From Acidobacteriota bacterium (GTDB lineage Bacteria > Acidobacteriota > Vicinamibacteria > Vicinamibacterales > UBA2999), in contig VFZN01000009.1 of the NCBI GenBank assembly GCA_016871195.1, forward strand, positions 1,451 through 65,450: 64,000 bases of DNA, given 5' to 3'. Shown here in pieces: positions 19,541 to 40,517 of the stretch (position 1 is the first letter of the stretch; each line of letters begins with the position of its first letter). The notes under the pieces were generated by a model. The model had not been told where the DNA came from. It saw only the letters and a list, made by a program, of their open reading frames with translations, and searched no databases. The translations under genes and the position numbers were made by a program.

Positions 19541-19580
19541 CACGCACAGAGACGACCGCAGACAGACAGGAGCTCGAACG

Positions 19581-20987: not shown

Positions 20988-20990
20988 CCC

Positions 20991-22715
20991 ATGACACGTG
21001 CACATCGCTTCCTGCAGATGCTGACGGCCACCGGGGTGGCGCTCGTGCTTGCCTCGGGACTCGCCGCCGCGCCGCCCGCCCCCGTGGCCGATGCGGCGCA
21101 GAAGGGTGATCTGGCGGCCGTGCGCCGGTTGCTGAAAGACGGCGCCGATGTGAATGCCGCGGCGGGTGATGGCACCACCGCGCTGCATCACGCCGCCATG
21201 CGTGGCGATGCCGACATGACAACGGTGCTGCTGGCCGCCGGCGCGAACGTGCGCGCCACCACGCGTCTCGGCGGATATACGCCGTTGCACCTGGCCGGAC
21301 AACGCGGTCACAGCGACGTCATTGACGCCCTGATCAAGGGCGGTGGAGACACCAACGCCGCCACGCAGACCGGGGCCACCCCGCTGATGATGGCGGCGGC
21401 CTCGGGCCATGTGCCGGCGGTGAAAGTGCTGCTGGCGAACAAGGCCAGCCTCAACGCCCGCGAGAAGGCCAATGAACAGACGCCTCTCATGTTTGCAGCG
21501 GCGTTCGACCGTGCCGACGTCGTGAAGCTGCTGGTCGAGGTCGGGGCCGATCTCAATGCCACCTCGAAGGTCACCGACGTCGCCCCGCTCATTTCGGCGG
21601 AAGAGGCGTTGCAGGAAGAGATTCGCGTGTCGACGCAGCGCAGCGGTGGGCAGGCGCCCACGCTGAATGCCCCCAAGAAGACCGTCTCGGCCGATGAGAT
21701 TCCCGGCGTGACCCGGAACTTCCGCTACAACGAGCTGATCGGCAAGCAGGGCGGCTTCGGCGCGATTCACTTTGCGGCGCGTCAGGGCAGTCAGGCGTCA
21801 GTGGCGGCGCTGCTGGCGGGCGGTGTCCATGTGAACACCCGCGCAGCCAACGACGGCACCACGCCGCTGCTGATGGCGATCATCAACGGGCACTATGACC
21901 TCGCGATGTATCTGCTGTCGCAGGGCGCTGATCCGAACATGGCCGCCGAGAACGGGGCGGCCTCGCTCTATGCGACGCTCAACATCGAGTGGGCGCCCAG
22001 GTCGTTCTATCCCCAGCCCCGCGCGCAGCTGCAGCAGAAGGCCGACTATCTGCAGCTGATGACCGCGCTGCTCGACAAGGGTGCCGATCCGAATGCGCGC
22101 CTGCGCAAGAAGGTCTGGTATACGCAGTACAACTTTGATCTGCTGCGCACCGACGAGATCGGCGCGACTCCCTTCTGGAAGGCTGCCTACGCTTCGGACA
22201 TCCGTGCCATGAAGCTGCTGGTGGCCCGCGGCGCTGACCCCAACATCACCACCGTTAAGCCGGCCAGCAACAACCGCGGCATGCAGGGCGGCACGCAGGC
22301 GCAGGCCGGCCCGTCCGGGCTGCCCCCCCTTCCAAGCGGAGGCCCCGGCATCGGTGCCCTTCATGCCGCCTCGGGCGTGGGCTATGGCGAAGGCTTCGCC
22401 GGGAACGCCCACCGCCTGGCCCCGACCGGGATGCTCGCGGCCGTCAAGTATCTGATCGAAGAACTGGGCCTCGACGTCAACGCGATCGATGACGATGGCA
22501 ATACGGCTGTGCACCATGCGGCCTCGCGCGGCGACAACGAGATGATTCAGTACCTGGTCTCGAAGGGCGCCGATGTCACCCGCATCAACCGTGCGGGCCT
22601 GACGACGCTCGACATGGCCAACGGACCGGTGCAGCGGACGCAGCCCTATCCGGAAACCATCAAGCTGCTGGAGAGCCTGGGCGCCAGCAATAACAACCGC
22701 TGCGTGTCCTGCTAG
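20991..22715 (+). CDS. Secreted ankyrin-repeat protein
   Basis: Signal-like N-terminus and many G-TALHxAAxxGxxxxVxxLLxxGAD repeats. 3-nt gap to the upstream gene. Confidence 0.85.
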   Translation: MTRAHRFLQMLTATGVALVLASGLAAAPPAPVADAAQKGDLAAVRRLLKDGADVNAAAGDGTTALHHAAMRGDADMTTVLLAAGANVRATTRLGGYTPLHLAGQRGHSDVIDALIKGGGDTNAATQTGATPLMMAAASGHVPAVKVLLANKASLNAREKANEQTPLMFAAAFDRADVVKLLVEVGADLNATSKVTDVAPLISAEEALQEEIRVSTQRSGGQAPTLNAPKKTVSADEIPGVTRNFRYNELIGKQGGFGAIHFAARQGSQASVAALLAGGVHVNTRAANDGTTPLLMAIINGHYDLAMYLLSQGADPNMAAENGAASLYATLNIEWAPRSFYPQPRAQLQQKADYLQLMTALLDKGADPNARLRKKVWYTQYNFDLLRTDEIGATPFWKAAYASDIRAMKLLVARGADPNITTVKPASNNRGMQGGTQAQAGPSGLPPLPSGGPGIGALHAASGVGYGEGFAGNAHRLAPTGMLAAVKYLIEELGLDVNAIDDDGNTAVHHAASRGDNEMIQYLVSKGADVTRINRAGLTTLDMANGPVQRTQPYPETIKLLESLGASNNNRCVSC

Positions 22716-22782: not shown

Positions 22783-25296
22783 ATGCGTCGTTCCACTGCC
22801 ATTCGTGTCGGGGGACTCTGCTGTCTGCTGCTTGTGCAGGTGGCGTCGGGAACCCTGCGCGCGTCGCAGCAGGCCCAGGCTGCGGCTGTGCGCAACCGCC
22901 CGGCCGCAGAGGCCGCGCTCAAGGCCGGACGCCACGACGACGTCGAACGCCTGACGGCAGATGCCGGTACCGATGAGGCTCTGGTGGTCATCAGGGCCCG
23001 CGCGGCGCGGGCCACCGGCGACTACGACAAGGCACAGTCACTGCTGGGACCCGCGGCCGACCGGCTGCGATCGGGCGATGCGGCACTCGAACTCGGCCTG
23101 CTGCAACTCTACCGGGGCCAGCGCCCCCAGGGGCGTCGCACACTCGAGCAGGTCATGATCGGGGCGCAGGATGCGGTCACCGCCAGCGACCTCGCGCGTG
23201 CGGCCAGAGCTGCCCGTGCCCTCGGACGCTTCGAAGATGCAAACGCCCTGTTTCGCGATGCCATCCGACTGACGCCGGACGACGCGGCGATCAACACAGC
23301 CTGGGGCGAACTCTTCCTCGAGAAGTTCAACAAGGCCGAGGCAACGCAGTCGTTCAAGGCGGCGCTCACCGCCGAACCGTCGTCTGTCGAGGCGCAGATG
23401 GGCATGGCCCGGGCGCTGGCCGACGAGAACCCACCGGAGGCCCGTCGCCTCCTCGATCAGGTGCTGGCCGCCAACCCTCGTCACACCGAGGCGCTGACCG
23501 AACTGGCCGCCGCAGCCATTCAGCAGGATCGGAAAGTCGAGGCTCGCGAGTGGATCGCGAAGGCACTGGCCGTGAATCCGCAGAGCCGCGAGGCGCTCGC
23601 GCTCGAAGGCGGCCTGGCCTATGTGGAAGGGCGCACCGACGAGCTCGCACGCATCGAGGCGCGCGTGCGGACCATTCATCCGGCCGACGCGGAGTTTTAT
23701 CGCACGCTGGGCGAGGTGACCGCCGGCTATTACCGGTTTGAGGAAGCGGCCACGCACGTGCGTCGTGCCCTGCAGCTCGACCGCGAGCACTGGCGGGCGT
23801 ACGCTGATCTCGGCGCACATCTGATGCGGATTGGCGACGAGGCCGGTGCGCGGCGGATGCTGGAAATGGCCTTCCGGCAGGACCCGTACGATGTCGTCAC
23901 GTTCAATCTGCTCGGCGTGCTCGATGCCCTCGAGAAATTCGGCAGCATCACCGATGGCCCGCTCGTCGTCAGGCTGCACGAGGACGAGTCGCCTGTCATG
24001 TCGCATTACGTGCCGGCTTTGGCGCGCGAGGCCTTCGAGACGCTCAGCCGCACATGGGAGTTCACGCCGACCGGGCCGATTCTCGTCGAGATGTTTCCGC
24101 GCCACGATGACTTTGCGGTGCGCAACCTCGGATTGCCCGGATTGCTCGGCGCACTCGGTGCGTGCTTCGGCAAGGTAGTGACGCTCGATTCGCCAAAGGC
24201 ACGCCCCCCGGGCGAATTCAACTGGGGCGCGACCCTGTGGCACGAGATGGCGCACGTCATCACGCTGCAGCTGTCGGGGCAGCGTGTGCCGCGGTGGCTG
24301 ACCGAAGGTGTCTCGACCTTCGAGGAAACCCGCGCCGGTCGTGACTGGGGACGAGAGATGGATGTGACCTTCGCGCGCGCCCTCGAGGCCGGCAAGGTCT
24401 TTCCGCTGAAAGATCTCAACAGCGGCTTCACCAACCCCGAGACGATCTCGCTGGCCTACTTCCAGTCGTCGCTCATCGTCGAGCACATCGTTGAACGATT
24501 CGGGCAGCCGCGCCTGCGCGCGCTGGTGCAGGTGTATGCGACGGGCGTCGATACTGACGCGGCGGTGTCTCAGGCGCTTAGTGTGCCGCTCGACAACCTG
24601 CAGGCGAGCTTCACCCGGTTCCTCGAGACGCGCTACGGGCGGCTGCGGCAGGTGCTGAAGGCCCCGGAGGGACTTGCGCAGGCCATGACCGTCGAGGCCC
24701 TCGAGGCACTGGCCCGGCAGCACGCCGACTCGTTCCCGGTGCAGATGGCACTCGGCGAGGCGCTCCGTGCCTCGCAGCCGGCACGGGCACTGACGGCATT
24801 CGAGAGAGCGGCAGCCCTGGTGCCGAATGCCCCGGGTGATGAGAATCCGCTGCGAGCCGTGGCCGAGGTGGCGCAGTCGCTGAAGCAGCCGGCAAGGGCG
24901 ATCGAGGCGCTGGATGCGCTCGGCACGCTCGACCCGGCAGCCCTGACGGCGGCGCGCACCCTTGCCACGCTCGTCGATCGGAAGGCACAGCCGCAGGTGC
25001 TGGAACGGGCGCTGCGCCGTGCCGTGGCGGTCGATCCGTTCGATGCACCGTCGCACACGACACTCGGGCAGCTGGCGATGGCCGATCGCCGGCACGCTGA
25101 TGCGGTTCGCGCCTTCCGCATCGCGCTGGCAGCGCGGCCGGTCGATCGGGCAGGCGCACACGCGGACCTCGCCGAGGCCCTGCTGGCCAACGGTCAGAAA
25201 GACGAGGCGCGACGGCAGGTGATGGCGGCCCTTGAGATTGCCCCGACCTATCCTCGGGCCCAGGAACTGCTGATCACCCTGAGTGGGGGACGCTAG
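22783..25296 (+). CDS. TPR-repeat protein with embedded MA-clan (gluzincin-like) peptidase domain
   Basis: Signal peptide. TPR-like helical repeats flank ATLWHEMAHVITLQ...WLTEGVSTFEE (HExxH at 24241-24255, plus a downstream Glu). Confidence 0.75.
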   Translation: MRRSTAIRVGGLCCLLLVQVASGTLRASQQAQAAAVRNRPAAEAALKAGRHDDVERLTADAGTDEALVVIRARAARATGDYDKAQSLLGPAADRLRSGDAALELGLLQLYRGQRPQGRRTLEQVMIGAQDAVTASDLARAARAARALGRFEDANALFRDAIRLTPDDAAINTAWGELFLEKFNKAEATQSFKAALTAEPSSVEAQMGMARALADENPPEARRLLDQVLAANPRHTEALTELAAAAIQQDRKVEAREWIAKALAVNPQSREALALEGGLAYVEGRTDELARIEARVRTIHPADAEFYRTLGEVTAGYYRFEEAATHVRRALQLDREHWRAYADLGAHLMRIGDEAGARRMLEMAFRQDPYDVVTFNLLGVLDALEKFGSITDGPLVVRLHEDESPVMSHYVPALAREAFETLSRTWEFTPTGPILVEMFPRHDDFAVRNLGLPGLLGALGACFGKVVTLDSPKARPPGEFNWGATLWHEMAHVITLQLSGQRVPRWLTEGVSTFEETRAGRDWGREMDVTFARALEAGKVFPLKDLNSGFTNPETISLAYFQSSLIVEHIVERFGQPRLRALVQVYATGVDTDAAVSQALSVPLDNLQASFTRFLETRYGRLRQVLKAPEGLAQAMTVEALEALARQHADSFPVQMALGEALRASQPARALTAFERAAALVPNAPGDENPLRAVAEVAQSLKQPARAIEALDALGTLDPAALTAARTLATLVDRKAQPQVLERALRRAVAVDPFDAPSHTTLGQLAMADRRHADAVRAFRIALAARPVDRAGAHADLAEALLANGQKDEARRQVMAALEIAPTYPRAQELLITLSGGR

Positions 25297-26108
25297 TGGC
25301 GGGCCGACGTGCTGAGGGCTGGCTGCGGTTGCCGATCCTCTGCGCGATCGCGCTGGCGGCACTGCTGACGGCGGCAGCCGTTGAGGCCCAGATTCCTGCG
25401 ATGCCCGGCGACCGGCTGGCCGGGCTGCAGTGGACATTTGCCCGCGTCAAGTACACCGCATCGTATGAGCGCCTGGGGGCCGGTCGACCACGCATGAGCT
25501 TCTGGGATGATCCCTGGGCCATCGATGCGCCTGCCGCCGAGCAGAATCTCTCGCGACGCATCCGGTCAGTGACGGCGATTCAGGTGGGTGAGCCGGTGGT
25601 CATCGAACTGACCGACGAGCGCCTGTGGCAGTTCCCGTGGCTGTATCTGGTCGAGCCGAGCAACCTCGATCTGCAGCCCAACGAGATTCCGGTGCTGCGC
25701 GAGTTTCTGCTGCGCGGCGGCACGCTGACCTTCGACGACTTTCACGGCCCCTATGAATGGGAGCTGACCGTGCAGCAGATGTCGAAGGTGTTTCCCGACC
25801 GCGAGATCGTCGAGCTGACGCCGTCGCATCCGATCTTCTCGGCCTTCTACCAGCTGGAGAAGTATCCGCAGATACCCGGATTGGGATCGTTCTTCAGCGG
25901 ACGCACCTGGGAGAAGGGCGGCTTCCAGCCGCACCTGCGCGCGATTCTTGATGATGAGGGACGGCCCATGGTGCTGTTCAACTGGAACACGGACATGGGC
26001 GACGGCGTCGAGTGGTCGAACGCCGAGGAATATCCGGGCTACCTCCGCTGGACGGCGCTGGCGTACCAGATGCTGATCAACGAGGTGGTGTATTCACTGA
26101 CGCACTGA
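25296..26108 (+). CDS. DUF4159-like protein
   Basis: GTG start overlaps the upstream TAG (TAGTG 25294-25298). FPWLYLVEPSN...LREFLLRGGTLTFDDFHGPYEWE...HPIF pattern. Confidence 0.6.
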   Translation: MAGRRAEGWLRLPILCAIALAALLTAAAVEAQIPAMPGDRLAGLQWTFARVKYTASYERLGAGRPRMSFWDDPWAIDAPAAEQNLSRRIRSVTAIQVGEPVVIELTDERLWQFPWLYLVEPSNLDLQPNEIPVLREFLLRGGTLTFDDFHGPYEWELTVQQMSKVFPDREIVELTPSHPIFSAFYQLEKYPQIPGLGSFFSGRTWEKGGFQPHLRAILDDEGRPMVLFNWNTDMGDGVEWSNAEEYPGYLRWTALAYQMLINEVVYSLTH

Positions 26109-26131
26109 CGACGCGAAGGATACCTGACGAC

Positions 26132-27139
26132 ATGAACGAGTCTCTGCACGACATGCCCGAACTGGCCCGACAGGTGGCGCACCAGCGTGAACAGGTGCTG
26201 ACGGAACTGCGGAAGGTGATTGTCGGGCAGGACGAGGTCGTCGATCAGGTGCTGATGTCGCTGTTCTGCGGCGGTCACTGCCTCATCACGGGCGTCCCCG
26301 GCCTAGCGAAGACGCTGCTCGTCAAGACACTCGCCCAGATTCTGCACCTGCGCTTCAAGCGCATTCAGTTCACGCCCGATCTGATGCCGGCCGATATCAC
26401 CGGCACCGAAGTGCTCGACGACGAGGGCGGCCGCCGCGCGCTGCGCTTTGTGCACGGACCGATCTTTGCGCAAATCATCCTGGCCGATGAAATCAACCGC
26501 ACGCCGCCGAAGACGCAGGCGGCCCTGCTCGAGGCGATGCAGGAGTATCACGTCACCGCCGCCGGCCGCACCTACGAGCTTGAGCGCCCCTTTTTCGTGC
26601 TCGCCACGCAGAACCCTATCGAGCTTGAGGGCACCTATCCACTGCCCGAGGCGCAGCTCGATCGCTTTCTCTTCAACGTCGTCATGACCTATCTCTCGGA
26701 AGACGATGAGGTGAAGGTGGTGACGGGCACTACGGGTCGGGCGGGGGCCGAGCCGCAGCGTGTGCTCGACGGCAACGACATCATGCGCATTCAGGAAGCG
26801 GTGCGGTCGGTGCTCGTTGCCGAGGACATTGCGCGTTATGCCGTGCGCCTGGTCGACAGTTCGCGGCCGGGTCGCGGGGCCAGGCTCGATTTCATCGAGC
26901 AGTATGTGAAGTGGGGTGCCGGCCTGCGGGCCTCGCATGCCCTTGTGCTGGGCGCGAAGGCCCGGGCGCTGGTGCATGGCCGACTGCACGTCACGGTCAA
27001 GGATGTGCAGGCGCTGGCGGCGCCGATTCTGAGGCACCGCGTGGTGCCGAACTTTTACGCGGAGGCCGAGGGCATGACGCCCGATCGCCTCATCGAGCGG
27101 CTGGTCGCGGCCGTTCCGGTGCCGACCAGCGGACTCTAG
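26132..27139 (+). CDS. MoxR-family AAA+ ATPase
   Basis: Walker A GVPGLAKT, Walker B ILADEINR, and VLATQNPIELEGTYPLPEAQLDRF. ATG 26132 is chosen over track start 26012, which overlaps the upstream gene. Confidence 0.9.
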   Translation: MNESLHDMPELARQVAHQREQVLTELRKVIVGQDEVVDQVLMSLFCGGHCLITGVPGLAKTLLVKTLAQILHLRFKRIQFTPDLMPADITGTEVLDDEGGRRALRFVHGPIFAQIILADEINRTPPKTQAALLEAMQEYHVTAAGRTYELERPFFVLATQNPIELEGTYPLPEAQLDRFLFNVVMTYLSEDDEVKVVTGTTGRAGAEPQRVLDGNDIMRIQEAVRSVLVAEDIARYAVRLVDSSRPGRGARLDFIEQYVKWGAGLRASHALVLGAKARALVHGRLHVTVKDVQALAAPILRHRVVPNFYAEAEGMTPDRLIERLVAAVPVPTSGL

Positions 27140-27143
27140 CCGC

Positions 27144-28037
27144 ATGACGACGCCGTCGCGGTTCCTTGATCCGTCGGTCGTGGCCCGGCTGGGCACGATC
27201 GACATCAAGGCCCGCACCATTGTCGAAGGGTTCCTGAGCGGACTGCACCGCAGCCCGTTCCGCGGCTACAGCGTCGAGTTCGCCGAGTATCGCCCCTACC
27301 TGCCGGGCGACGACCTCGCCACCCTTGACTGGAAAGTGTTTGCCCGCACTGATCGCCATGTGGTGCGCAAGTTCGAGCACGACACCAATCTCGAGTGCCA
27401 CATCGTCCTCGACATCAGCCGGTCGATGAGTTTTGCATCGGGTACCGTGTCGAAGCTCGAATACGGGTCTTATGTCGCCGCGACGCTGGCCTACCTGATG
27501 CATCGCCAGCACGATGCGGTGGGGCTGGTGACCGTCGACGATCGCATCCGCTTCCGCATGCCTCCCGGCGTGCGGTCGGGTCATCTGCGTGCGCTGCTGG
27601 TGGCCCTCGAGCGAGTCACACCAGGGGAGGCGACGAGGCTTGCCACGCCCTTCGGCGATCTCGTCGAGGCCATCGATTGGCGGGGACTCGTCGTGGTGAT
27701 TTCCGATCTGCTTGACGATTCCGACGCGGTCATCGACGGGCTGTCGCACTTCCGCCATAAGGGCACCGATGTGGTGGTGTTTCAGGTGCTCGACCCGTAC
27801 GAGCGTGAGTTTCCATTCGAGCGTGCCTCGCGCTTTCGCGACATGGAGAGCGGCGAAGAGGTCGCGCTGGTTCCGGGTGAGATGCGCGAGCGATATGTGA
27901 CGCGCATGCGTGAACAGATCGCGCACTATCGTCACGCGCTCGGGCAGCATGGCATCGACTACTGTCTGCTGACGACGACCGACCCGCTCGACACGGCGCT
28001 GCTGGCGTACCTGCAGACACGGCGGAAGAGCCGATAA
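27144..28037 (+). CDS. DUF58 domain-containing protein (vWA-like)
   Basis: GLHRSPFRGYSVEFAEYRPYLPGDD...DWKVFARTD and a MIDAS-like DISRS. 4 nt after the moxR stop. Confidence 0.9.
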   Translation: MTTPSRFLDPSVVARLGTIDIKARTIVEGFLSGLHRSPFRGYSVEFAEYRPYLPGDDLATLDWKVFARTDRHVVRKFEHDTNLECHIVLDISRSMSFASGTVSKLEYGSYVAATLAYLMHRQHDAVGLVTVDDRIRFRMPPGVRSGHLRALLVALERVTPGEATRLATPFGDLVEAIDWRGLVVVISDLLDDSDAVIDGLSHFRHKGTDVVVFQVLDPYEREFPFERASRFRDMESGEEVALVPGEMRERYVTRMREQIAHYRHALGQHGIDYCLLTTTDPLDTALLAYLQTRRKSR

Positions 28038-29867
28038 ATGGGCGCGCTCTCATTTCTGGCTCCGATGTACCTGCTGGGGGCACTGGCGATTGCCGTGCCG
28101 CTCCTGCTGCATCTCTATCGACGACGCACCGAAGAGGTCATCGAGTTTCCATCGGTCGCATGGCTGCAGACAGTGCCGGTCGAAACGCACCAGCGGCGAC
28201 GCCTGCGCGACTGGCTGCTACTGATGCTGCGCGTGGCTGCGCTGCTGCTGCTGGCCGCGGCTTTCGCACGTCCCTACCTCGCGTCGGGCGAGGCCGCCAT
28301 CAGCCGGCCGCTCACGGTGCTGGCCGTTGACGTCTCAGCCAGCATGGCCGCGCCGGGTGTCTGGTCTCGAGCCCAGCAGGCTGCGATGTCGGCGCTTGAT
28401 GCGGTCGCCGACGGCGAGCTGGTCGCGCTGGTACGCTTCGACAACACGGCCGCGGTCGCGGTCGCGCCCACGTCAGACCGCGAGGCGGTGCGCCGCGCGG
28501 TTTCGGCAATGCAACCCGGGGAGGGCGCCACGGCTCTGCACGCCGCGCTGCGGCAGGCCACCGAACTGGTCGGGGCACGGGACGGACGCGTGGTCCTTGT
28601 GTCGGATGTGCAACAGTCAGGGTGGGAACGGTCACTGGCGGGTGTCGTTCCCGAGTCGATACCGGTCGATGTGCGGGTGGTGGAAGGCGCACGCGGCAAC
28701 CTCGCCCTGACCGATGTCTCGCCCGTGCCCGCCTTGCCGGCGTCGACGGGTAGTGCCGGGTCGCCCGCGGTTACGGTGGCGATTCGGAACTTTGGAGTGG
28801 CCCAGCAGCAGACGACGGTGACGGTGCAGCCGGCAGGCGAGGCGCGTGCGGTCACGCAGGATGTGACGGTGGCGCCGCAGAGTGCCGTGTCGGTGCGGGT
28901 GCCGCTGGTGTCGCTTCCCGAGGAGGCCGTGGTGTCCATCACCGATCCCGACGGCATCCCCGTAGACAATCGACTGGCGTGGTCATCAACGCGCACGGAT
29001 GTGGCGCAGGTCACCGTGCTCGTGGCTAATCCCGGTGGCAGCGACGGCTTGTATGTCGAGCGGGCGCTTGAGGCCGTGGCGTCACGTCGTCGTCTGCAGG
29101 TGTCGGTGGTTGACGGGTTGTCGTATTCGTCTTCGGCGTCTCAGGGGGATGATTCATCGCATCTGCTGATGGTGCTGGGTTCGCGAACGCTCACCCGGAA
29201 TGGACGGACCCGCCTGAAGCAGCACATCGAGGCCGGGCACCCGGTGCTGATGACACTGGGGCCGCAGGTCGACCGCGAGACGATGCGCGAGTGGCTGGGA
29301 CGGCCCCTCGTGCTGCATCCGGACGATGGGCAGTGGCCGGCGCTCGGACGTCCTCTAGTGATCGATGACGTGCGGCATCCGGTGTTTCTCGGGGCTCAGC
29401 GCACGGATGCGGTGCTCGGTGACATACCGATCAGGCACAGTGCGCGTGTCACCGCGCTCGACGGATGGCGTGTGCTGGCCCGGGTCAGCGATGGGACGCC
29501 GGTGCTGCTCGAGTCTGACGCGCCCGGCGGTCGTGTGCTGCTGTGGACATCGGATGTCGACCAGCAGTGGAACGGCTTTCCGCTGTCGCCAGCCTTCGTG
29601 CCCTTTCTGGCCGATGCGGTGGCCTACCTGCTGGGGCAGGCCCCAGGAGGGCGTGACTCGCGTGCGGTGATGAATGAGGGCAACCCGTGGCCGCTGTCGG
29701 CGGAGGCGCTGCTGGCCGGTATTCCGCGGGGGCCGAGACCACAGGCGCCGCCCCCCGAGGTGAGTGCCCGGCGCCTCGAGTCGGAGCAGCGATGGTGGCA
29801 GGCCGGGCTGGCGCTGATGCTGACCGCGCTGCTGATTGAAGGATGGATCGGGCGGCGCGCCCGCTGA
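28038..29867 (+). CDS. BatA-type protein: N-terminal double-TM domain + vWA domain
   Basis: FLAPMYLLGALAIAVPLLLHLYRRR N-terminal anchor, MIDAS DVSAS and a C-terminal TM. ATG abuts the upstream TAA (28035-28040). Confidence 0.8.
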   Translation: MGALSFLAPMYLLGALAIAVPLLLHLYRRRTEEVIEFPSVAWLQTVPVETHQRRRLRDWLLLMLRVAALLLLAAAFARPYLASGEAAISRPLTVLAVDVSASMAAPGVWSRAQQAAMSALDAVADGELVALVRFDNTAAVAVAPTSDREAVRRAVSAMQPGEGATALHAALRQATELVGARDGRVVLVSDVQQSGWERSLAGVVPESIPVDVRVVEGARGNLALTDVSPVPALPASTGSAGSPAVTVAIRNFGVAQQQTTVTVQPAGEARAVTQDVTVAPQSAVSVRVPLVSLPEEAVVSITDPDGIPVDNRLAWSSTRTDVAQVTVLVANPGGSDGLYVERALEAVASRRRLQVSVVDGLSYSSSASQGDDSSHLLMVLGSRTLTRNGRTRLKQHIEAGHPVLMTLGPQVDRETMREWLGRPLVLHPDDGQWPALGRPLVIDDVRHPVFLGAQRTDAVLGDIPIRHSARVTALDGWRVLARVSDGTPVLLESDAPGGRVLLWTSDVDQQWNGFPLSPAFVPFLADAVAYLLGQAPGGRDSRAVMNEGNPWPLSAEALLAGIPRGPRPQAPPPEVSARRLESEQRWWQAGLALMLTALLIEGWIGRRAR

Positions 29868-29886
29868 TTCGCGTACGATACGGCCT

Positions 29887-32800
29887 ATGGACGCGCACGA
29901 GCACGCCGTCGGAGCCCTGCTGAGCCAGGTGCGTGAGCGCCTCTGGCGGAACAGCCGGCGCCGTCTCTGGACGGTTGGTCTGGCGGCCGCCAGTGTGGCG
30001 CTGGCTATCGGCGGTCTTGTCACCTGGTGGGTGGCGGGTGAGGGCGTGCCGCTGGTGGTGGCCGTTGTCGCCATGCTGCTGGCTGTGGCTGCGGTGCTGA
30101 GAGCCACCGCGCTGTCGATGCCTGCCGCTCCTACGGAGCGTGCGGTCGCTCGTCTCGTCGAGGAACGTACCGGCGGCCTCGATGACCTGCTGGTCACGCT
30201 GGTCGATCACGATGCACAGCCGTCAGCGTCGGTCGAGGCACTGCGGCAGCAGGCCGAACGCGCCATTCGGGATGTGGCGGTCGACGATGTGGTGCCCACC
30301 CGCGTTGTGGCGCATGCGACACGCGGACTCGTCGCCGCAGGAATAGTGCTGGCCGTGGCTGCCCTCGGCGTGAGTCCTTCCGTGTGGCGCGCCTCACAGG
30401 TGGTCAGCGCCTACCTGTTTCCGGCGCGCATCGACATCGTGGTGGAACCGGGCGACAGCCGTGTGCGGCGCGGTGAGGCCGTGCAGGTCGCTGCCCGGGT
30501 CACTGGTGTCGAGGGCCTGGCTCCGTCGCTCCTGCGCGAGACCGACACCGGTGTCGTGGCCGAACCCATGCCGCGTGCGGCCGACGGTCGTTTTGTGTGG
30601 TCACTGGCCGCGCTCGAGGCGTCGGTGACGTATCGCGTCACGGCAGGGCCGGTGACGACCGGGACGTTCCACATCGAGGCGATCGACGCTGCCGCGTTGA
30701 CGCGCATCGATCTCACCTACAGCTATCCGGCGGCCATGCGTCAGCCGTCCCGCACCGAGGCCGACAGTGGTGACATCTTCGGTCCGCGCGGCACGGTCGT
30801 GACGGTCGACCTCGTGTTCGACAAGCCAGTGGTCAGCGGTGCCCTTCAACTCGGCACAGGCCAGCCGCTCGCGGCCGAACGCACCGCGGAGGGCCTGCGG
30901 GCCCGGCTGACGATCGATCAGGACACGACGTATCGAGTCGCAGCCCGTGACGGCGATGGCCTCGACAGCACAACGGGCGTCGAGTATTTCATCCGCATGC
31001 TCAACGATCGTCCTCCTGATGTGCGCATCGCGCATCCCGGGGGCGATCGGCAGGTGACGCCTCTTGAAGAAGTGACCATTGAGGCCGTGGCCGACGATGA
31101 CTTTGCGGTCGCGTCGCTCGAGATTGTGGTGCAGCGGCAGGGGAAAGCCGAGACCGTCGTCCCGGTGCGCACCAATCAGTCGCCGCAGGTGACGGGGCGT
31201 TATGTCGTGGCCATGGAAGATCTCGGTGTGAAGCCCGGTGAAATGGTCAGCTATCACGCGCGGGCGCGCGACGTCGGCCGCGGTCGTGCCGCGACCGAGG
31301 TGCGCAGCGACATCTACTTCCTCGAAGTGAAGCCGTATGAGGAAACCTTCCGCGCCGCCCAGACGCAGGCGGCCAGCGGGCAGATGGCTGCCCCCGAGGT
31401 GCAGGCGCTGGTGGATGCGCAGAAGGAGATCATCGCCGCGACATGGAAGCTCGATGCACGTGCCCAGCGTGCCGGGGCGTCTGCGGCGCGTCGCGATCTG
31501 AACGAGCTGGCGCAGGCGCAGCGGGCGCTGCGCGACCGTGCCCTCGAAGAAGCGGGCAACGTGGCGCAGGCCCTGGCTGATCCGACCCGCCGGCGTCGGC
31601 AGGCGCCGCCCGGGGCTGGCGGTGCCGCGTCACCGATGCAGGCAGCGGCCGAGGCCATGGGTGAGGCCGCCGAGGAACTCGAGCGGGCGCGACCGCGGCA
31701 GGCCCTGCCGCGCGAAATGGAGGCGCTTGAGCAGCTGCTCAAGGCCGATGCCGACGTGAAGGAACGGCAGATCGCCCGCCAGCAGGGCAACGGGCGCGCA
31801 GGCAATCGGCAGTCGCCCGATATGTCGACGCTGTTTGACCAGCAGCTGAGACAGCAGCAGCAGACCAGTTACGAAACACCGACGACCACCGAGACCCGCG
31901 AAGAGACCCCGCCTGAGGCTGACCCGCTGTCGCGCATCCGCGAACTGGCCCGGCGTCAGGAGTCGCTGCAGCGTCAGCAGGAAGAGCTGGCCCGCAATCG
32001 GGCGCGGCTGGAGGCGGAAGAGGCCCGGCGGCAGCTCGAGCGCCTGACACGCGAGCAGCAGCAGCTGACCGAGCAGGCCTCGTCGCTGGCGCGTGATCTC
32101 AGGAATCAGTCCTCGTTCTCACCACAAGGCACGGAAGAATCGCGCGCGAGGCAGCAGGGCACCGAGGAGTCGCGGGCGATGCAGCAGGCGGCCGAGCAGA
32201 TGCGGTCGGCGGCGGGTGATCTGCAGCGGCAGGACCCGACGCAGGCCAGCGCCCGCAGCGGGCGCGCAGCCGAGGCCCTGCGCAATCTGTCGCGCCAGAT
32301 GGAACGTGCCCAGCCCGAGGCGCGACAGCGGGCACTGGGCGATCTGCAATTCGAGGCGCGGCAACTGGCCGAGGCTGAGCGACGCCTGGCGGCCGAGGCC
32401 GAGCAGCGGGCGCGGACGCCGGATGCCAGTCGCGCACCGTCGCCGGCAGCCGCGACAGACGACGCGCGGCGACTCGCCGCCGAACAGAATCGCCTCGCCG
32501 ATCGGGCGGCGCAACTCCGTGACGCCGCCAGGCAACTGGCGCGTGGCCTTTCGCCCGACCGCGAACCTGACCCCACGACGCGCGAACAGCAGCAGGCGGC
32601 GGTCGACGCCGCGCGTGCGCTCGAGCGCAGCCAGCTCGAGGCGCAGATGCGGGGGTGGGCAGATCGGCTGGGCACGCGCCCCGAAGCCAGTGCCGAGGCC
32701 GCCGCTCAGGCCCGCGAGATGGCGCGCGCGCTGGATCGCGTGGCCGGACAGCTGGGCGAAGCCGCCGGAGTGAGTGACCGCGAAGGCGAGCGCCTGTCCG

Positions 32801-33279
32801 AGGCCCTGCAGCGCACCGGGGAACTGCGGACGCAGATGGCCGAGGCTCAGCGTGCCCTGGAGGCGCTGGCGAAGGAGGCCGACACCCCGGATACCGACCC
32901 GGACCGACAGCGGCGGATCGAACGGCTGCAGCGGGACGCGCAGGGGCGCATGGGCGAGGCACGGGCCCTTGCCGAGGGCTTGCAGCAGTCGAGCCCGGAG
33001 CTGCGTCAGGCCCCCACCACTCCTGAAGACTGGAGCCCCAGCCTCTCGGCCCCGGGCACCGAAGCGTTCAAGCAGGATCTGTCGAGCTGGGAATCGCTCA
33101 AGCGTCAACTGCTCGCCGCCGTGGATCGCACCGAGCGGCGGCTGACTGACGCGCTGCGCGCACGCATGTTGACCGACCGGCTGCCGGCGGGCGGGGCCTC
33201 TCAGGTGGCCGACGAATATCGGCCACTGGTTGACCAGTATTTCCAGACGCTGCCGGCGCCGAGGCGGCCTCAGCAGTGA
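29887..33279 (+). CDS. Large two-TM protein with long Q/R/E/A-rich coiled coil (DUF4175/TIGR02302-like architecture)
   Basis: ATG 29887. Two N-terminal TM helices, a beta-rich middle, then roughly 600 aa of charged helical low-complexity sequence including QGTEESRARQQGTEESRAMQQ. The family name is inferred from architecture only. Confidence 0.6.
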   Translation: MDAHEHAVGALLSQVRERLWRNSRRRLWTVGLAAASVALAIGGLVTWWVAGEGVPLVVAVVAMLLAVAAVLRATALSMPAAPTERAVARLVEERTGGLDDLLVTLVDHDAQPSASVEALRQQAERAIRDVAVDDVVPTRVVAHATRGLVAAGIVLAVAALGVSPSVWRASQVVSAYLFPARIDIVVEPGDSRVRRGEAVQVAARVTGVEGLAPSLLRETDTGVVAEPMPRAADGRFVWSLAALEASVTYRVTAGPVTTGTFHIEAIDAAALTRIDLTYSYPAAMRQPSRTEADSGDIFGPRGTVVTVDLVFDKPVVSGALQLGTGQPLAAERTAEGLRARLTIDQDTTYRVAARDGDGLDSTTGVEYFIRMLNDRPPDVRIAHPGGDRQVTPLEEVTIEAVADDDFAVASLEIVVQRQGKAETVVPVRTNQSPQVTGRYVVAMEDLGVKPGEMVSYHARARDVGRGRAATEVRSDIYFLEVKPYEETFRAAQTQAASGQMAAPEVQALVDAQKEIIAATWKLDARAQRAGASAARRDLNELAQAQRALRDRALEEAGNVAQALADPTRRRRQAPPGAGGAASPMQAAAEAMGEAAEELERARPRQALPREMEALEQLLKADADVKERQIARQQGNGRAGNRQSPDMSTLFDQQLRQQQQTSYETPTTTETREETPPEADPLSRIRELARRQESLQRQQEELARNRARLEAEEARRQLERLTREQQQLTEQASSLARDLRNQSSFSPQGTEESRARQQGTEESRAMQQAAEQMRSAAGDLQRQDPTQASARSGRAAEALRNLSRQMERAQPEARQRALGDLQFEARQLAEAERRLAAEAEQRARTPDASRAPSPAAATDDARRLAAEQNRLADRAAQLRDAARQLARGLSPDREPDPTTREQQQAAVDAARALERSQLEAQMRGWADRLGTRPEASAEAAAQAREMARALDRVAGQLGEAAGVSDREGERLSEALQRTGELRTQMAEAQRALEALAKEADTPDTDPDRQRRIERLQRDAQGRMGEARALAEGLQQSSPELRQAPTTPEDWSPSLSAPGTEAFKQDLSSWESLKRQLLAAVDRTERRLTDALRARMLTDRLPAGGASQVADEYRPLVDQYFQTLPAPRRPQQ

Positions 33280-33298
33280 CGCCCGGGATTCGCTCCGC

Positions 33299-35518
33299 AT
33301 GAGCCTTGCCGTCGTCTGGCCCTGGTGGGCGCTGGTGGCCGCTGCCGTCGGCATTGTGATTGCGGCCCTGGCGGCTTACCGTCGCGCTGTGCCGCCGTTG
33401 ACCGAGGGGCAGCGGGCTGCCCTCGTGGGCCTGCGCGTGCTCGTCCTGAGCGCCCTTGTCGTGGCGCTCTTGCGCCCCGTGCGGCAGTCGCCCAGTGCCG
33501 AGCAGCCCACGCGTCTGCTGCCCGTTGTGGTCGACGTGTCGGGCAGCATGGGCATTCCCGATGCGCCAGAAGGGAAGACGCGCCTCGATGCGGCACGTAC
33601 GCTGGTACGCACCATCGAATCACAGCTGACTGGCGCGCGCCTGCGTGTGGAAGTGTGGCCGATGCACGATGGCACTACGGCAACCGATGTGAACGCGCTG
33701 CGCGCGGAGGGGACTCGCAGCGATCTGGCGGCCGCGATCGACGAAGTCGCCGGGCGCGCCCTCGCTCGGGATGCCGCCGCCGTCGTGCTAGTCTCAGACG
33801 GAGTGACCACCGATCGCGGCGTGGCGCGACCCGAACGGCGCGACGCGCTGCCGCTGTTCACCATGGCCGTCGGCGGCGCGCAGGCAGTGCGCGATCTCGA
33901 TGTCGTGCGCATCGAGGCCGGGACTGCCACCTTGCCCGGTTCGGCCATCGACATACTTGCGGTCGTCGTTGCCCGCGGGATGCGCGGACGTGCCGTGACG
34001 CTGCGGCTCAGCGAGAACGGGCGACCCGTCGACTCAGCCACGGTCACCCCTGATGCCGACGTGGCCACCATTCCCTTCCGGTTTGTGGTCACGCCTCCCC
34101 CTGATCAACCCACGGTGTATGCCACCGAGGTGCAGCAGGCCGATGCCGTGCCCGGTAACGACCGGCGTCAGGTGCTGGTGCCGCCCCAGATGGGTCAGCG
34201 GCGTGTGCTGCTGATGGAAGGGGCCCCCGGGTTCGAGCACACATTCCTCAAGCGTGCCCTGGCCACTGATACCGCGTTGTCAGTCGATGCCCTCGTGCGC
34301 AAGGGGCGCGATGATCAAGGCCGCGATACCTTTGCGGTCCAGGCCACGGAAGACCGCGCGTCGGTGCTGGCCCAGGGATTTCCCTCGAGCCGGGAAACAC
34401 TCTTCCAGTACGACGCCGTGGTGCTCAGCAATGTCGAGGCCGAGTTCTTCACGCGGGCGCAGCTCGAGCTGGTGCGGCAGTTTGTGGCCGAGCGCGGTGG
34501 TGGCCTGCTGGTGATGGGATCACGCAGCTTTGAGCGCGAAGGGATGGCGGCCACGCCCATCGCTGATGTGCTGCCCGTTGATCCGGCCGTGCGTCGGTGG
34601 CAGGACGCGGCAGCCGACGATGCCGCGAGGAACCTGCCGGCCAACGCCCCAGCCGTCACCCGCGATGGTGCCACGCACTCGGCCACGCGCCTGTCGATCG
34701 ACGGCGATGACAGCGCTGCGCTGTGGCGCACCTTCCCTCCGCTGGCCTCGGTATCTTCGATGGGCGCACCGCGTCCAGGGGCGCAGGTGCTGGCGGTGAC
34801 CGCCAATCCCGGAGGCCAGGCGAGCCCGCTCATCGTCATGCAGCGCTTCGGTCAGGGGCGATCGCTCGTCTTCGCCGGGGAAGCGGCATGGCGGTGGCGG
34901 ATGATGCGCCCCTCGTCCGACACGGCCTACGCCACGGTCTGGCGCCAGATGATTCGAGCCTTGGTCGCACCAGCGCCCGGGCCCGTGATCATGAGGGCGG
35001 GTGGCGTGGCGGGAGCCAACGAACAGACGCCGGTGCTGATTGATGTGCGTGACGCACGGTTCCTTCCGGTGACCGACGCCGAGGTGAGGCTCACCGCGCA
35101 GGCCCCCGATGGTCGGACACGATCGCTGCAGCCCGTGCTGAGCGATGCCGCCGCCGGGCGCTACGCCGTCGTGGTGCCGACGTCGGACGCCGGGGTCTGG
35201 ACGCTGACCGCCGAGGCTGTGCATCGCGGCGTGGTGCGCGGCACGACGGTGACCCATCTGCTGATTCCGCCGCCGAATGACGAATTCACGCGACCCGAGG
35301 TGAACCTGCCCGCGCTGCGTCGGCTCGCCGACGCGGCAGGAGGACAGGCCTTCACCGACGACACCTTGCCTGACCTCATCGAGCGCCTGCGCCGCCTGCA
35401 GACGTCGCCGGCCCGATACGAGGACGTCGACTTGTGGCACAACGTCTGGACGCTCGCAGGTATCATCGCGCTGCTGGCGACGGAATGGACCCTGCGTCGC
35501 CATTGGGGAATGCTATGA
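33299..35518 (+). CDS. Membrane-anchored vWA protein fused to class-I glutamine-amidotransferase-like domain
   Basis: N-terminal TM pair, MIDAS DVSGS, a later RRVLLMEGAPGFEH...YDAVVLSNVE...GGGLLVMGS (GATase1/ThuA-like) segment, and a C-terminal TM. Confidence 0.7.
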   Translation: MSLAVVWPWWALVAAAVGIVIAALAAYRRAVPPLTEGQRAALVGLRVLVLSALVVALLRPVRQSPSAEQPTRLLPVVVDVSGSMGIPDAPEGKTRLDAARTLVRTIESQLTGARLRVEVWPMHDGTTATDVNALRAEGTRSDLAAAIDEVAGRALARDAAAVVLVSDGVTTDRGVARPERRDALPLFTMAVGGAQAVRDLDVVRIEAGTATLPGSAIDILAVVVARGMRGRAVTLRLSENGRPVDSATVTPDADVATIPFRFVVTPPPDQPTVYATEVQQADAVPGNDRRQVLVPPQMGQRRVLLMEGAPGFEHTFLKRALATDTALSVDALVRKGRDDQGRDTFAVQATEDRASVLAQGFPSSRETLFQYDAVVLSNVEAEFFTRAQLELVRQFVAERGGGLLVMGSRSFEREGMAATPIADVLPVDPAVRRWQDAAADDAARNLPANAPAVTRDGATHSATRLSIDGDDSAALWRTFPPLASVSSMGAPRPGAQVLAVTANPGGQASPLIVMQRFGQGRSLVFAGEAAWRWRMMRPSSDTAYATVWRQMIRALVAPAPGPVIMRAGGVAGANEQTPVLIDVRDARFLPVTDAEVRLTAQAPDGRTRSLQPVLSDAAAGRYAVVVPTSDAGVWTLTAEAVHRGVVRGTTVTHLLIPPPNDEFTRPEVNLPALRRLADAAGGQAFTDDTLPDLIERLRRLQTSPARYEDVDLWHNVWTLAGIIALLATEWTLRRHWGML

Positions 35519-36483
35519 ACACTCGCCACCGATGTGCTGGGATCCTTGCGCTGTGGGCGCTGCTGCTGTTCGGCGAGGCCGCGGCCGAGACGCGGCGTGC
35601 GCTGATCATCTCGGGGGCGTCCGGCGGCGAGAAGTACGCCACCGACATGGCGCAGTGGCGGACGACGCTGCGCGAGGCGCTGGTGTCGCGCCATCGGTTC
35701 GATCAGGCGCAGGTGCAGATGCTCGTCGATGAGGCCGCCGCCGAGGGGACGCGGGCGACAGCGGCCGCCGTGAAGACGACACTGGCCCGCCTGCGCAGCG
35801 AGGCGGCACCAGACGACTTCCTGCTGGTCGTGCTGTTCGGGCACGGCACCTTTGATGGCGAGGTGGCGAAATTCAATCTGGTGGGCCCTGACCTCACCGC
35901 AGCCGAATGGCAGCAGGCCCTGGCGGGCATTGCCGGACGCGTTGCGATCGTCAACACCACCGAGTCGAGCTTTCCCTTTCTCGACGCCCTGAAGGCCCGG
36001 GGGCGCATCGTCGTGACCGCGACGAACTCGGCGGCGCAGAAGTACGCGACGGTCTTCCCGCAGTATTTCGTCAAGGCGATGAATGAGGCGTCGACGGATC
36101 TCGACAAGAATGGTCGGACGTCGCTGCTCGAAGTGTTCGAGGCGACGAGCCTCGCCGTGACGCAGCACTACGAGCAGCAGGGCCTGCTGACGACCGAACG
36201 GGCTCTCATCGATGATTCCGGAGACGGGCGCGGCAGCGAACAGGGCGCCGAGGGCGGGGACGGCGCACTGGCCCGCACCTGGCAGATCGATGCAGAGCCA
36301 CAGGCCGCCTCGACCGATCCTGAAGTGAAAGCCCTGTTGCAGCGTCAGCGGACGCTCGAGGCCGAGGCCGAGGCGCTGAAGCTGCGCAAAGACTCGATGC
36401 CGGCGAACGAGTGGCAGTCGGCCTACGAAACACTGATGCTTGATCTGGCGCGCGTGTCACTCGAGCTGCGCAAGCGCGGCTAG
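35515..36483 (+). CDS. Secreted peptidase C13 (legumain/GPI8)-like protein lacking the catalytic Cys
   Basis: ATGA overlap with the upstream gene; signal peptide. LLVVLFGHGTFDG (His110) aligns by eye with legumain YFTDHG. VAIVNTTESSFPF aligns with YIEACESGSMM, giving Thr149 in place of the Cys. IVVTATNSAAQKYAT aligns with VYATTAANPRESSYA. C-terminal coiled coil. Confidence 0.55.
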   Translation: MNTRHRCAGILALWALLLFGEAAAETRRALIISGASGGEKYATDMAQWRTTLREALVSRHRFDQAQVQMLVDEAAAEGTRATAAAVKTTLARLRSEAAPDDFLLVVLFGHGTFDGEVAKFNLVGPDLTAAEWQQALAGIAGRVAIVNTTESSFPFLDALKARGRIVVTATNSAAQKYATVFPQYFVKAMNEASTDLDKNGRTSLLEVFEATSLAVTQHYEQQGLLTTERALIDDSGDGRGSEQGAEGGDGALARTWQIDAEPQAASTDPEVKALLQRQRTLEAEAEALKLRKDSMPANEWQSAYETLMLDLARVSLELRKRG

Positions 36484-37139
36484 GCGCCCCACCACTCGAC
36501 CTGCGCGCGCTCGGGTCGCTCGAGTGGCTTCACGAGCAGCACCCCTGCCACAAAGCCCATGACGTGCGCCCAGAAGGCGACGCCGCCCGGGAGATCGGCC
36601 GCGGTCGCCAGCGATCCGAGGCCGCTGAGAAACTGCATCAGGAACCACAGACCGAGGAAGAAGACCGCCGGCACTTCCGTGAGCAGAAACGGAAACGGCA
36701 GCAGCGTGAGCACACGCGAGCGCGGATAGAGCACAAAGTACCCGCCCATCACACCGGCAATGGCGCCGCTTGCGCCCACCATCGGCACGACCGACTCGCG
36801 GTTCAGCAGCACCTCGGCCAGCGCCGCCACCAGGCCCGTCAGCAGATAGAACAGCACGAACCGGGGACGACCGAGGCGGTCTTCCACGTTGTCGCCGAAG
36901 ATCCACAGGTAGAGCATGTTGCCGCCCGCATGACCCACGCCCGCATGGATGAACATCGACGTCAGCAGCGTCAGCGCGGAAGGCGCGGCTGGAATGATGC
37001 CCCACTCGCGGATGAAGCGATCGAGGGCCTCGGGCGGCAGCGTCAGCTCGTAGCCGAAGACCAGCACGTTCAGCCCGAGCAGCACGTACGTGACCCAGGG
37101 CGTGGTGCGCGTCGGGATGATGTCCTTCAGGGGAATCAT
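36480..37139 (-). CDS. Rhomboid family intramembrane serine protease
   Basis: HAGVGHAGGNMLYLW and GASGAIAGVMG (GxSG) motifs, with a downstream His in a TM helix (AFWAHVMGF). 219 aa. Confidence 0.85.
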   Translation of the reverse strand: MIPLKDIIPTRTTPWVTYVLLGLNVLVFGYELTLPPEALDRFIREWGIIPAAPSALTLLTSMFIHAGVGHAGGNMLYLWIFGDNVEDRLGRPRFVLFYLLTGLVAALAEVLLNRESVVPMVGASGAIAGVMGGYFVLYPRSRVLTLLPFPFLLTEVPAVFFLGLWFLMQFLSGLGSLATAADLPGGVAFWAHVMGFVAGVLLVKPLERPERAQVEWWGA

Positions 37140-37161
37140 GGTCTGTGGTTAAGATCGTGGC

Positions 37162-37371
37162 ATGACTTGTCAGACGTGCGGCACCGAGATCGCGGACAAA
37201 GCACTCATCTGCTACCGCTGCGGCACAGCCACGGCGGCTCCTCGGGTGCCTCCTCCGGCCTCGCGTCGCGCTTCGGGAGGATTCCCGTGGCGGATCGCCG
37301 CCCTCGCGTTGCTGCTGCTCGCTGCGGCGGCCCTCTGGTGGTGGCTGCAGCGCGGGGCGCTGGCGTCGTGA
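37162..37371 (+). CDS. Small Zn-ribbon protein with C-terminal TM helix
   Basis: CQTC...CYRC followed by WRIAALALLLLAAAALWWWL. 69 aa. Diverges from the rhomboid gene across 22 nt. Confidence 0.55.
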   Translation: MTCQTCGTEIADKALICYRCGTATAAPRVPPPASRRASGGFPWRIAALALLLLAAAALWWWLQRGALAS

Positions 37372-37420
37372 TTGCGCGCGCCGGGTAACTGCGTCAGCGC
37401 CGTACCGCGGCGATGGTCGA

Positions 37421-40500: not shown

Positions 40501-40517
40501 GGCGGGGTAGTGTCGGC

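Follow-up and report, generated by a model that had tools for sequence, protein, structure and literature searches.

A tightly packed operon of eight plus-strand genes, labelled G1 to G8 in 5' to 3' order (positions 22783-36483), was found in DNA from an Acidobacteriota bacterium. The analyzed stretch, referred to as the window, comprises 64,000 nucleotides of contig VFZN01000009.1 and has a G+C content of approximately 67%. The operon combines a core known from Bacteroides aerotolerance (Bat) operons, namely a MoxR-type AAA+ ATPase, a DUF58 protein and BatA-type VWA proteins, with a tetratricopeptide repeat (TPR) protein that carries a gluzincin-type zinc peptidase domain and with a caspase-fold protein that lacks its catalytic cysteine. 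Comparison of gene neighborhoods indicates that the eight families travel together in four layouts and in two phyla. The predicted topology of the proteins points, tentatively, to a MoxR/DUF58 motor that may act via two inner-membrane VWA paralogues on a periplasmic pair formed by G1 and G8.

A previous reading of this DNA, made from the letters alone (the sequence-only reading), had listed eight plus-strand genes with junctions of -4 to +23 nucleotides, and an open reading frame check of the window reproduced every one of its coordinates. G1 (22783-25296) and G2 (25296-26108) share a TAG/GTG overlap at 25294-25298, a gap of 23 nucleotides precedes the moxR start codon (ATG) of G3 (26132-27139) at 26132, and four nucleotides (27140-27143) separate G3 from G4 (27144-28037). 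The stop codon of G4 abuts the start codon of G5 (28038-29867) as TAA-ATG at 28035-28040, gaps of 19 nucleotides lie before both G6 (29887-33279) and G7 (33299-35518), and G7 overlaps G8 (35515-36483) in the sequence ATGA at 35515-35518. Judging from this spacing, it is plausible that G1 to G8 are transcribed as a single unit. Consensus scans returned no promoter-like sites in the scanned region and four terminator-like matches, which is no excess over shuffled sequence, and the tRNA, Rfam, promoter and terminator scans together gave nothing beyond chance that delimits a transcription unit. The domain calls for the operon proteins were also all reproduced by Pfam and NCBIfam. By its gene order and spacing, the locus is a tightly packed eight-gene operon whose arrangement is far from a chance one, because dozens of independent loci contain these genes as well.

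Conservation of the gene set was followed in a scan anchored on G8 and a scan anchored on G2. The former used one genome per GTDB species and matched at least 596 species, of which the best 80 loci were examined with 10-kb flanks, while the latter covered metagenome loci. Nearly all of the best 80 G8 loci are labelled Vicinamibacteria or Acidobacteriota, and in 66 of them G7 lies directly upstream of G8 together with whichever of the genes G2 to G6 fit into the 10-kb flank. Either G7 or G1 directly precedes G8 in every G8-anchored locus with enough upstream sequence (78 of 78). Eighteen G2-anchored metagenome loci are colinear with the window from G1 to G7 or G8, with all eight genes present in L110 and L126, and a colinear operon is also found in metagenome-assembled genomes (MAGs) labelled Luteitalea. 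The order G7 G8 G1 G2 G3 G4 G5 G6 was detected in L082 and, with all eight genes, on plasmid 1 (a megaplasmid) of Gemmatirosa kalamazoonensis KBS708, a cultured member of the Gemmatimonadota. The order G6 G7 G8 G1 G2 G3 occurs in L086, and G2 G7 G8 G1 G3 G4 G5 G6 occurs in L087, with which L140 and L141 agree through G5. The colinear order is that of Vicinamibacteria, and two other gene orders occur in other Acidobacteriota. This neighborhood test bears out what the sequence-only reading had proposed, namely a gene set larger than the Bat-type core of MoxR, DUF58 and BatA-VWA, and shows that the set is conserved. Its additional members, among them the genes for the TPR-gluzincin, the DUF4159 protein and the caspase-like protein, recur as partners of the core in these layouts and in the second phylum. 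In the searchable literature, DUF4159, DUF4175 and DUF1355 were found in no paper and this gene set was described in none.

Some of the database records carry titles that do not fit their content. L006, L015, L037 and L083 are titled 'uncultured Bifidobacteriaceae bacterium', yet they hold a Vicinamibacteria-type operon at 50-66% identity, and L079 carries a 'Betaproteobacteria' title; these five labels are the exceptions among the best 80 G8 loci. All five are almost certainly mislabelled or misbinned MAGs.

The first gene of the operon, G1, encodes a secreted protein of 837 residues in which a Peptidase_MA_2 domain (Pfam; 55.7 bits against a cut-off of 32.4) is flanked by TPRs on both sides and preceded by a hydrophobic signal-like segment at the N-terminus. 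The HEMAH motif occupies residues 487-491 (nucleotides 24241-24255) and is followed by the Glu of a WLTEG motif (nucleotides 24304-24306). Pfam score, HEXXH motif and downstream Glu ligand together mark the product as a predicted gluzincin metallopeptidase, and the HExxH...WLxEG signature is invariant in 45 of 45 homologues. An AlphaFold2 (AF2) model with a mean predicted local distance difference test score (pLDDT) of 90.7 shows approximately ten N-terminal TPRs, an alpha/beta domain at residues 387-625 and further C-terminal TPRs, bringing the total to approximately 15. A Foldseek search with the full model yielded matches to eukaryotic TPR scaffolds only, as the repeats swamped the peptidase domain. 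BepA of E. coli, a periplasmic M48 metalloprotease with TPRs that takes part in envelope protein quality control, can be regarded as a possible functional analogue, as G1 is likewise a putative periplasmic zinc metalloprotease fused to TPRs. However, BepA belongs to M48 rather than Peptidase_MA_2 and has neither MoxR/VWA nor caspase-fold partners.

The last gene, G8, encodes a secreted protein of 322 residues with a predicted signal peptide, within which its only Cys is located. No Pfam family scored above its cut-off for this protein, C13 (PF01650) giving E = 0.096 and 12.6 bits against 22.8. The AlphaFold model (pLDDT 93, predicted template modelling score 0.89; 90-sequence alignment) was matched by Foldseek to the legumain zymogen 6ysa (E = 3e-9), metacaspases, MALT1 and GPI8. 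A profile of the family, which comprises 2303 clusters at 50% identity, aligned with metacaspase-4 (E = 3e-7) and placed the catalytic His at H110 and the Cys of the DSCHSG motif at position 150. The modelled fold is that of a clan-CD caspase-hemoglobinase. The sequence-only reading had called the protein legumain-like and devoid of its Cys; the Cys-less clan-CD fold stands, but a specific placement in C13 does not, as legumain and metacaspase score alike.

H110 (nucleotides 35842-35844) is embedded in a GHG motif and is invariant in 99 of 99 and 120 of 120 family members. At the nucleophile site, E150-S151-S152 (nucleotides 35962-35970) replaces C-x-S; across the family, position 150 is occupied by S, A, P, E or G and position 151 by A, S or G, with S-A being the most common pair. 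G8 therefore was not filed as a C13 peptidase, since the Cys is missing despite the clan-CD fold and the conserved His. With legumain (C13) and the metacaspases (C14) it shares the fold, the His in GHG after the third strand and the S-G after the nucleophile position, and two long C-terminal helices in the model recall the prodomain of 6ysa. It differs from these enzymes in that the nucleophile is replaced, an EF-hand-like loop is inserted, the location is predicted to be periplasmic, and a gluzincin is always paired with it. The loop (DLDKNGRTSLLE, nucleotides 36097-36132) lies inside a helix-loop-helix, its coordinating positions fit in 90 of 99 family representatives, and a DDxGDG-like loop is present in addition.

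One acidobacterial clade, represented by the homologue P0217, has a T-P-C-S-G motif with Cys at position 151, a feature of 96 of the 120 sequences. The P0217 protein reaches 27.9 bits with PF01650, above the cut-off of 22.8, and some proteins of this clade are named 'C13 family peptidase' or 'caspase family protein' by NCBI. The P0217-clade locus holds the same eight families as the operon in the window. The nucleophile has thus been lost in most G8 lineages, though not in all of them.

The two proteins encoded by G3 and G4 show neither transmembrane (TM) segments nor signal peptides and form the cytoplasmic part of the system. G3 encodes the MoxR-type AAA+ ATPase of 335 residues (AAA_3 and AAA_lid_2 domains; AAA_3/MoxR 210.8 bits in Pfam) with the Walker A motif GVPGLAKT at nucleotides 26291-26314. 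G4 encodes the DUF58 protein (297 residues, 162.5 bits) with a VWA-like domain and the motif DISRS at nucleotides 27411-27425. The product of G2 is a secreted DUF4159 protein of 270 residues with a signal-like N-terminus, an assignment made by Pfam only (134 bits). Its invariant columns include T269 and H270 at the C-terminal end (nucleotides 26100-26105), and (L/M)-T-H is found at the extreme C-terminus of DUF4159 homologues, stand-alone copies in unrelated loci included. This terminal Thr-His may be a recognition or metal-binding element. A comparison of G2 with the GATase1-like regions of G5 and G7 by hhalign aligned the motifs LREFLLRGG and HPIF and was not significant (E = 0.02-0.06).

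G5 and G7 encode the membrane-anchored VWA proteins of the operon. The BatA-type protein G5 (609 residues) scored 67.2 bits with BatA and 55.1 bits with VWA_2 in Pfam and 78.7 bits with TIGR02226 in NCBIfam; its layout consists of an N-terminal TM hairpin, a VWA domain predicted to be periplasmic, a GATase1-like region and a C-terminal hydrophobic anchor. The second TM-hairpin VWA protein, G7 (739 residues), combines VWA_2 and GATase1_like (Pfam) with Ig-like domains between an N-terminal TM hairpin and a C-terminal hydrophobic anchor. The DxSxS motif of a metal ion-dependent adhesion site (MIDAS) reads DVSAS in G5 (nucleotides 28329-28343) and DVSGS in G7 (nucleotides 33533-33547) and is invariant in 25 of 25 sequences of each (the window and 24 homologues). 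Together with DISRS of G4, all three motifs named in the sequence-only reading were present. Pairwise BLAST of G5 against G7 is nearly blank, and it is by profile comparison (hhalign probability 99.2%, E = 2e-19, approximately 450 columns) that the two are recognized as paralogues. Both have an Arg-rich loop in the N-terminal hairpin and an Arg-rich tail after the C-terminal anchor, which place the VWA and GATase1-like domains, by prediction, in the periplasm. This agrees with the mapped topology of the BatA-type homologue BB0173, for which experiments located the protein in the inner membrane and its VWA domain in the periplasm (PMC5700661).

The longest product of the operon is G6 (1130 residues), a putative DUF4175-family protein. 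Its match to DUF4175 (PF13779) covers only profile positions approximately 180-330 of 825 and reached 26.8 bits against a cut-off of 27.3, while three of four orthologues scored above the cut-off with 30.7, 32.6 and 33.5 bits. Where two TM segments had been claimed for this protein, three hydrophobic segments are predicted and conserved in the orthologues. Three such segments would place the bulk of the protein in the periplasm, including the Ig-like domains predicted for that compartment and a helical region of approximately 500 residues, 60% of which are A, E, R or Q. A conserved loop of approximately 70 residues between TM2 and TM3 is predicted to be cytoplasmic. By these predicted topologies, short loops of G5, G6 and G7 are the only cytoplasm-facing parts within reach of MoxR/DUF58.

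The gene orders do not support the view that the eight genes encode one indivisible eight-part machine; they rather point to two modules. G1 and G8 are adjacent in all non-colinear layouts, and in 13 loci G1 is directly followed by G8 with no G2 to G7 between them. In two of these 13 loci, P0131 and P0137, which belong to one clade, G1 and G8 are fused into a single open reading frame in which a linker of approximately 30 residues rich in A, T, S, G and P takes the place of the G8 signal peptide. The G1-G8-only loci keep the flanks of the full operon, with KAS, FAD_binding_3 and PEMT genes upstream and the rhomboid gene downstream, and a tree of G8 resolves them as two separate clades nested among lineages that have the full operon. 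The simplest reading of these gene orders and of the tree is that this site lost the G2-G7 block by excision on two or more occasions, with G1 and G8 remaining side by side. Because the two genes were retained after loss of the block and remain adjacent in the permuted layouts, G1 and G8 are suggested to be a functional pair and G2 to G7 a separable module.

Two further loci bear on the fusion genes. The apparent fusion in the opposite order (G8::G1) in P0213 was rejected as a frameshift artefact. In L005 (8881-12367), a long-read-style ENA contig, a G1::G8 fusion gene is split into overlapping calls of 385 and 788 residues, which is probably an assembly indel error and not biology.

Among known systems, the Bat operon of Bacteroides and its spirochaete homologues in Leptospira (bat) and Borrelia (BB0170-BB0176) share with the window a MoxR (AAA_3) protein, a DUF58 protein and two paralogous BatA-type inner-membrane VWA/MIDAS proteins. 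As in a Bat module, the AAA_3 gene lies next to the DUF58 gene, the two being 4 nucleotides apart in the window, and G5 combines the BatA double-TM anchor with a MIDAS-bearing VWA domain. TPR proteins are also part of the Bat clusters, but the TPR protein G1 carries a gluzincin domain. Pfam detected no BatD, no BatC and no SH3-TPR BatE here; instead, the membrane VWA proteins carry additional GATase1-like and Ig-like domains and the DUF4159, DUF4175 and caspase-fold proteins are extra. Another comparable system is the 'broadly conserved operon' RL3499-RL3502 of Rhizobium leguminosarum, which combines membrane proteins with a MoxR-like ATPase and a DUF58 protein and is likened here by description only. 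Its mutants are reported to be impaired on complex medium and to show envelope defects; in contrast to the window, the operon has four genes, and no TPR-peptidase or caspase-fold gene is reported for it.

The best experimentally supported working model for a MoxR-DUF58-VWA module is the MxaRSACKL system, in which MxaR (MoxR), MxaS (DUF58/VWA) and MxaA/C/K/L are jointly required to insert Ca2+ into the periplasmic methanol dehydrogenase (PMC12276312). There, a cytoplasmic MoxR and a DUF58/VWA protein work with VWA partners (MxaC and MxaL) in the service of a periplasmic metalloprotein; in the window, two VWA partners are likewise encoded, the likeness of G5 and G7 to MxaC and MxaL being one of VWA domains. 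Unlike in MxaRSACKL, no gene for methanol dehydrogenase or for pyrroloquinoline quinone (PQQ) is found here, and the presumed client is the pair of zinc peptidase and caspase-fold protein. Candidate metal sites, the zinc motif of G1 and the EF-hand-like loop of G8, are co-encoded with the module, while the G1-G8-only loci argue for separability.

A MoxR-driven VWA platform is favored because the topology leaves only the short loops within reach of the motor and because MxaRSACKL is the best-supported precedent. The conservation of the gene set across layouts and phyla, the linkage of G1 and G8 and the invariant gluzincin, MIDAS and G8 His motifs also speak for it. In this model, the most likely of those considered yet short of an even chance, the first module (G2-G7) would comprise a cytoplasmic MoxR AAA+ hexamer with the DUF58 (VWA-like) protein as adaptor, acting on the short cytoplasmic loops of G5, G7 and G6. 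On the periplasmic side, G5 and G7 would display their GATase1-like domains and their VWA domains with MIDAS motifs, G6 would extend its long helical arm, and the soluble DUF4159 protein G2 would belong to this module as well. In the second module, G1 would be a periplasmic TPR-scaffolded zinc endopeptidase and G8 its calcium-binding caspase-fold partner without a nucleophile, probably a peptide-binding or regulatory subunit. ATP-driven remodelling by MoxR/DUF58 would be transmitted by the TM hairpins to the VWA domains in the periplasm, and these domains might capture, metal-load or position the G1-G8 pair in the way that MxaRS and MxaACKL act on methanol dehydrogenase, and the activated pair could then process or quality-control envelope proteins. 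The earlier proposal of an envelope-located rather than metabolic system is supported by the predicted locations.

Several observations weigh against the platform model. Bat-operon deletions in Leptospira gave no phenotype, oxidative stress included (PMC3557215) and thus give no guide to a generic role of such modules. G1 and G8 persist at the locus without G2 to G7 in 13 loci, and if these genomes are without G2 to G7 altogether, the pair would be independent of the module. A phmmer search with the G1 peptidase domain alone found no relative in the PDB. Of 99 G8 family members, only 7 match the strict EF-hand pattern of PROSITE, which G8 of the window misses at position 8, so that the calcium claim stays at the level of a motif. 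What the analysis shows is the gene content and its conservation, the predicted topology, the folds, the conserved motifs and the linkage of G1 with G8, whereas all physical contacts, the loading with metal, the direction in which the parts act and the substrates are inferred.

In a bolder version of the platform model, transmembrane energy coupling would build or activate a composite periplasmic protease, in which the gluzincin is governed by a Ca2+-dependent, non-catalytic caspase-fold regulator. The change from Cys peptidase to regulator would be caught in transition here, as one clade keeps the His/Cys pair. This version appears rather improbable. If it were true, it would provide a concrete client and a mechanism for the long-enigmatic Bat/MoxR-proper operons.

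Of the rival explanations, an envelope tether fares best, although it is still considered unlikely. The membrane proteins, the helical arm of G6 and the TPRs of G1 would then form a periplasm-spanning integrity scaffold that is powered or assembled by MoxR, with G1 and G8 in structural or accessory roles. The A/E/R/Q-rich helix of approximately 500 residues beyond the three TM segments of G6, the anchoring of G5 and G7 at both ends and the approximately 15 TPRs of G1 would suit such a scaffold, as would the reported poor growth of Rhizobium RL3499, RL3500 and RL3501 mutants on complex TY medium. However, the likeness of RL3501 and RL3502 to G5 and G6 is one of description only, Pfam finds no outer-membrane or peptidoglycan-binding domain in the eight proteins, and the invariance of the catalytic motif of G1 (45 of 45) favors an enzymatic over a purely structural use.

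It is less likely still that the locus unites two independent neighbors, a stand-alone G1-G8 protease pair and a generic MoxR/Bat-like G2-G7 module, which are linked by synteny only. The precise loss of G2 to G7 in two separate clades with unchanged flanks speaks for this explanation, as does the occurrence of DUF4159 genes alone in unrelated contexts. Against it, G8 and G1 lie among the genes of the module in three further gene orders and also in the second phylum; a neutral synteny would not be expected to survive repeated rearrangement, which weakens the neighbors-only explanation. The constant presence of G7 or G1 directly upstream of G8 (78 of 78 loci) counts against it as well.

A Bat-like aerotolerance or oxidative-stress system, a role first proposed for Bacteroides, is very unlikely. 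Relatives of the hosts are typically aerobic soil bacteria, Pfam finds neither BatD nor SH3 in the eight proteins, and no redox domain is present among them. While the locus has MoxR, DUF58 and BatA-VWA, the core families, in common with Bat systems and a moxR deletion in Riemerella changes survival of thermal and oxidative stress (PMC11834572), the Leptospira bat deletion had no oxidative-stress phenotype (PMC3557215).

An anti-phage or other conflict system built on MoxR, vWA and a caspase was rejected as extremely improbable. The combination of MoxR, VWA and caspase-fold proteins would suit it, as would a weak bpMoxR match in Pfam (E = 2.8e-10). What defines such ternary systems, however, is variable effectors together with a third core component, which can be VMAP, iSTAND, FtsH or a beta-propeller (Kaur et al. 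2020). Pfam found no such component here, PADLOC gave zero family matches for the eight proteins, the caspase-fold G8 is secreted and without a nucleophile, and the locus is stably syntenic across a whole bacterial class and not a variable island. The parallel that the sequence-only reading drew to MoxR-vWA couples wired to caspase-like peptidases therefore does not hold. The operon adds new parts to the Bat/MoxR-DUF58-VWA kind and is not a defence system.

Few bacterial gene clusters that lack a mechanism are as widespread as the MoxR-DUF58-VWA ('Bat-like') operons, and the platform model offers a zinc protease and a degenerate caspase-fold protein as candidate client or effector. Informative natural variants are available in the form of fusions, circularly permuted orders, repeated six-gene deletions and a Cys-keeping clade. 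The system is common in Vicinamibacteria, and its further hosts are other Acidobacteriota and a cultured representative of the Gemmatimonadota; both phyla are widespread in soil. Culturable relatives such as G. kalamazoonensis KBS708 make an old question directly testable. Even if the platform model is wrong, the analysis annotates eight genes that are publicly listed as 'hypothetical protein', 'tetratricopeptide repeat protein' and the like.

The genes that flank the operon in the window differ in part from those of its relatives. An ankyrin-repeat gene ends 67 nucleotides upstream of G1 and is the last of a tightly spaced plus-strand group (16988-22715) that also includes a PSCyt/PSD multi-domain cytochrome-c gene (DUF1592/1588/1585/1595/1587) and a gene for DUF1552 (HXXSHH), the usual partner of the PSCyt/PSD cytochrome-c protein. 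The gene for the ankyrin-repeat protein (574 residues) begins only 3 nucleotides beyond the DUF1552 gene. It was found upstream of G1 in none of the relatives' loci, where KAS, FAD_binding_3 and PEMT genes are located instead, and the lineage of the window was thus rearranged in this region.

On the other side, a rhomboid intramembrane protease gene (36480-37139, minus strand) converges on G8 with overlapping stop codons. This neighbor is kept in most Vicinamibacteria loci, with or without G2 to G7, and is absent from the distant gene-order layouts and from the Gemmatirosa locus. In L001-L003, genes for a Zn-ribbon protein, an FHA-GAF-SpoIIE phosphatase and an HMGL-like protein separate the rhomboid gene from an M28 peptidase gene. 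As the M28 gene of the window (37421-38368, minus strand) almost directly follows the rhomboid gene, with 37140-37420 between them, this block is missing here. Further along, a PhoU-domain protein gene (39805-40935, minus strand) encodes 376 residues if the listed GTG start is used, with a weak N-terminal match to DUF7782, while in relatives the PhoU genes found at this position code for 226-230 residues.

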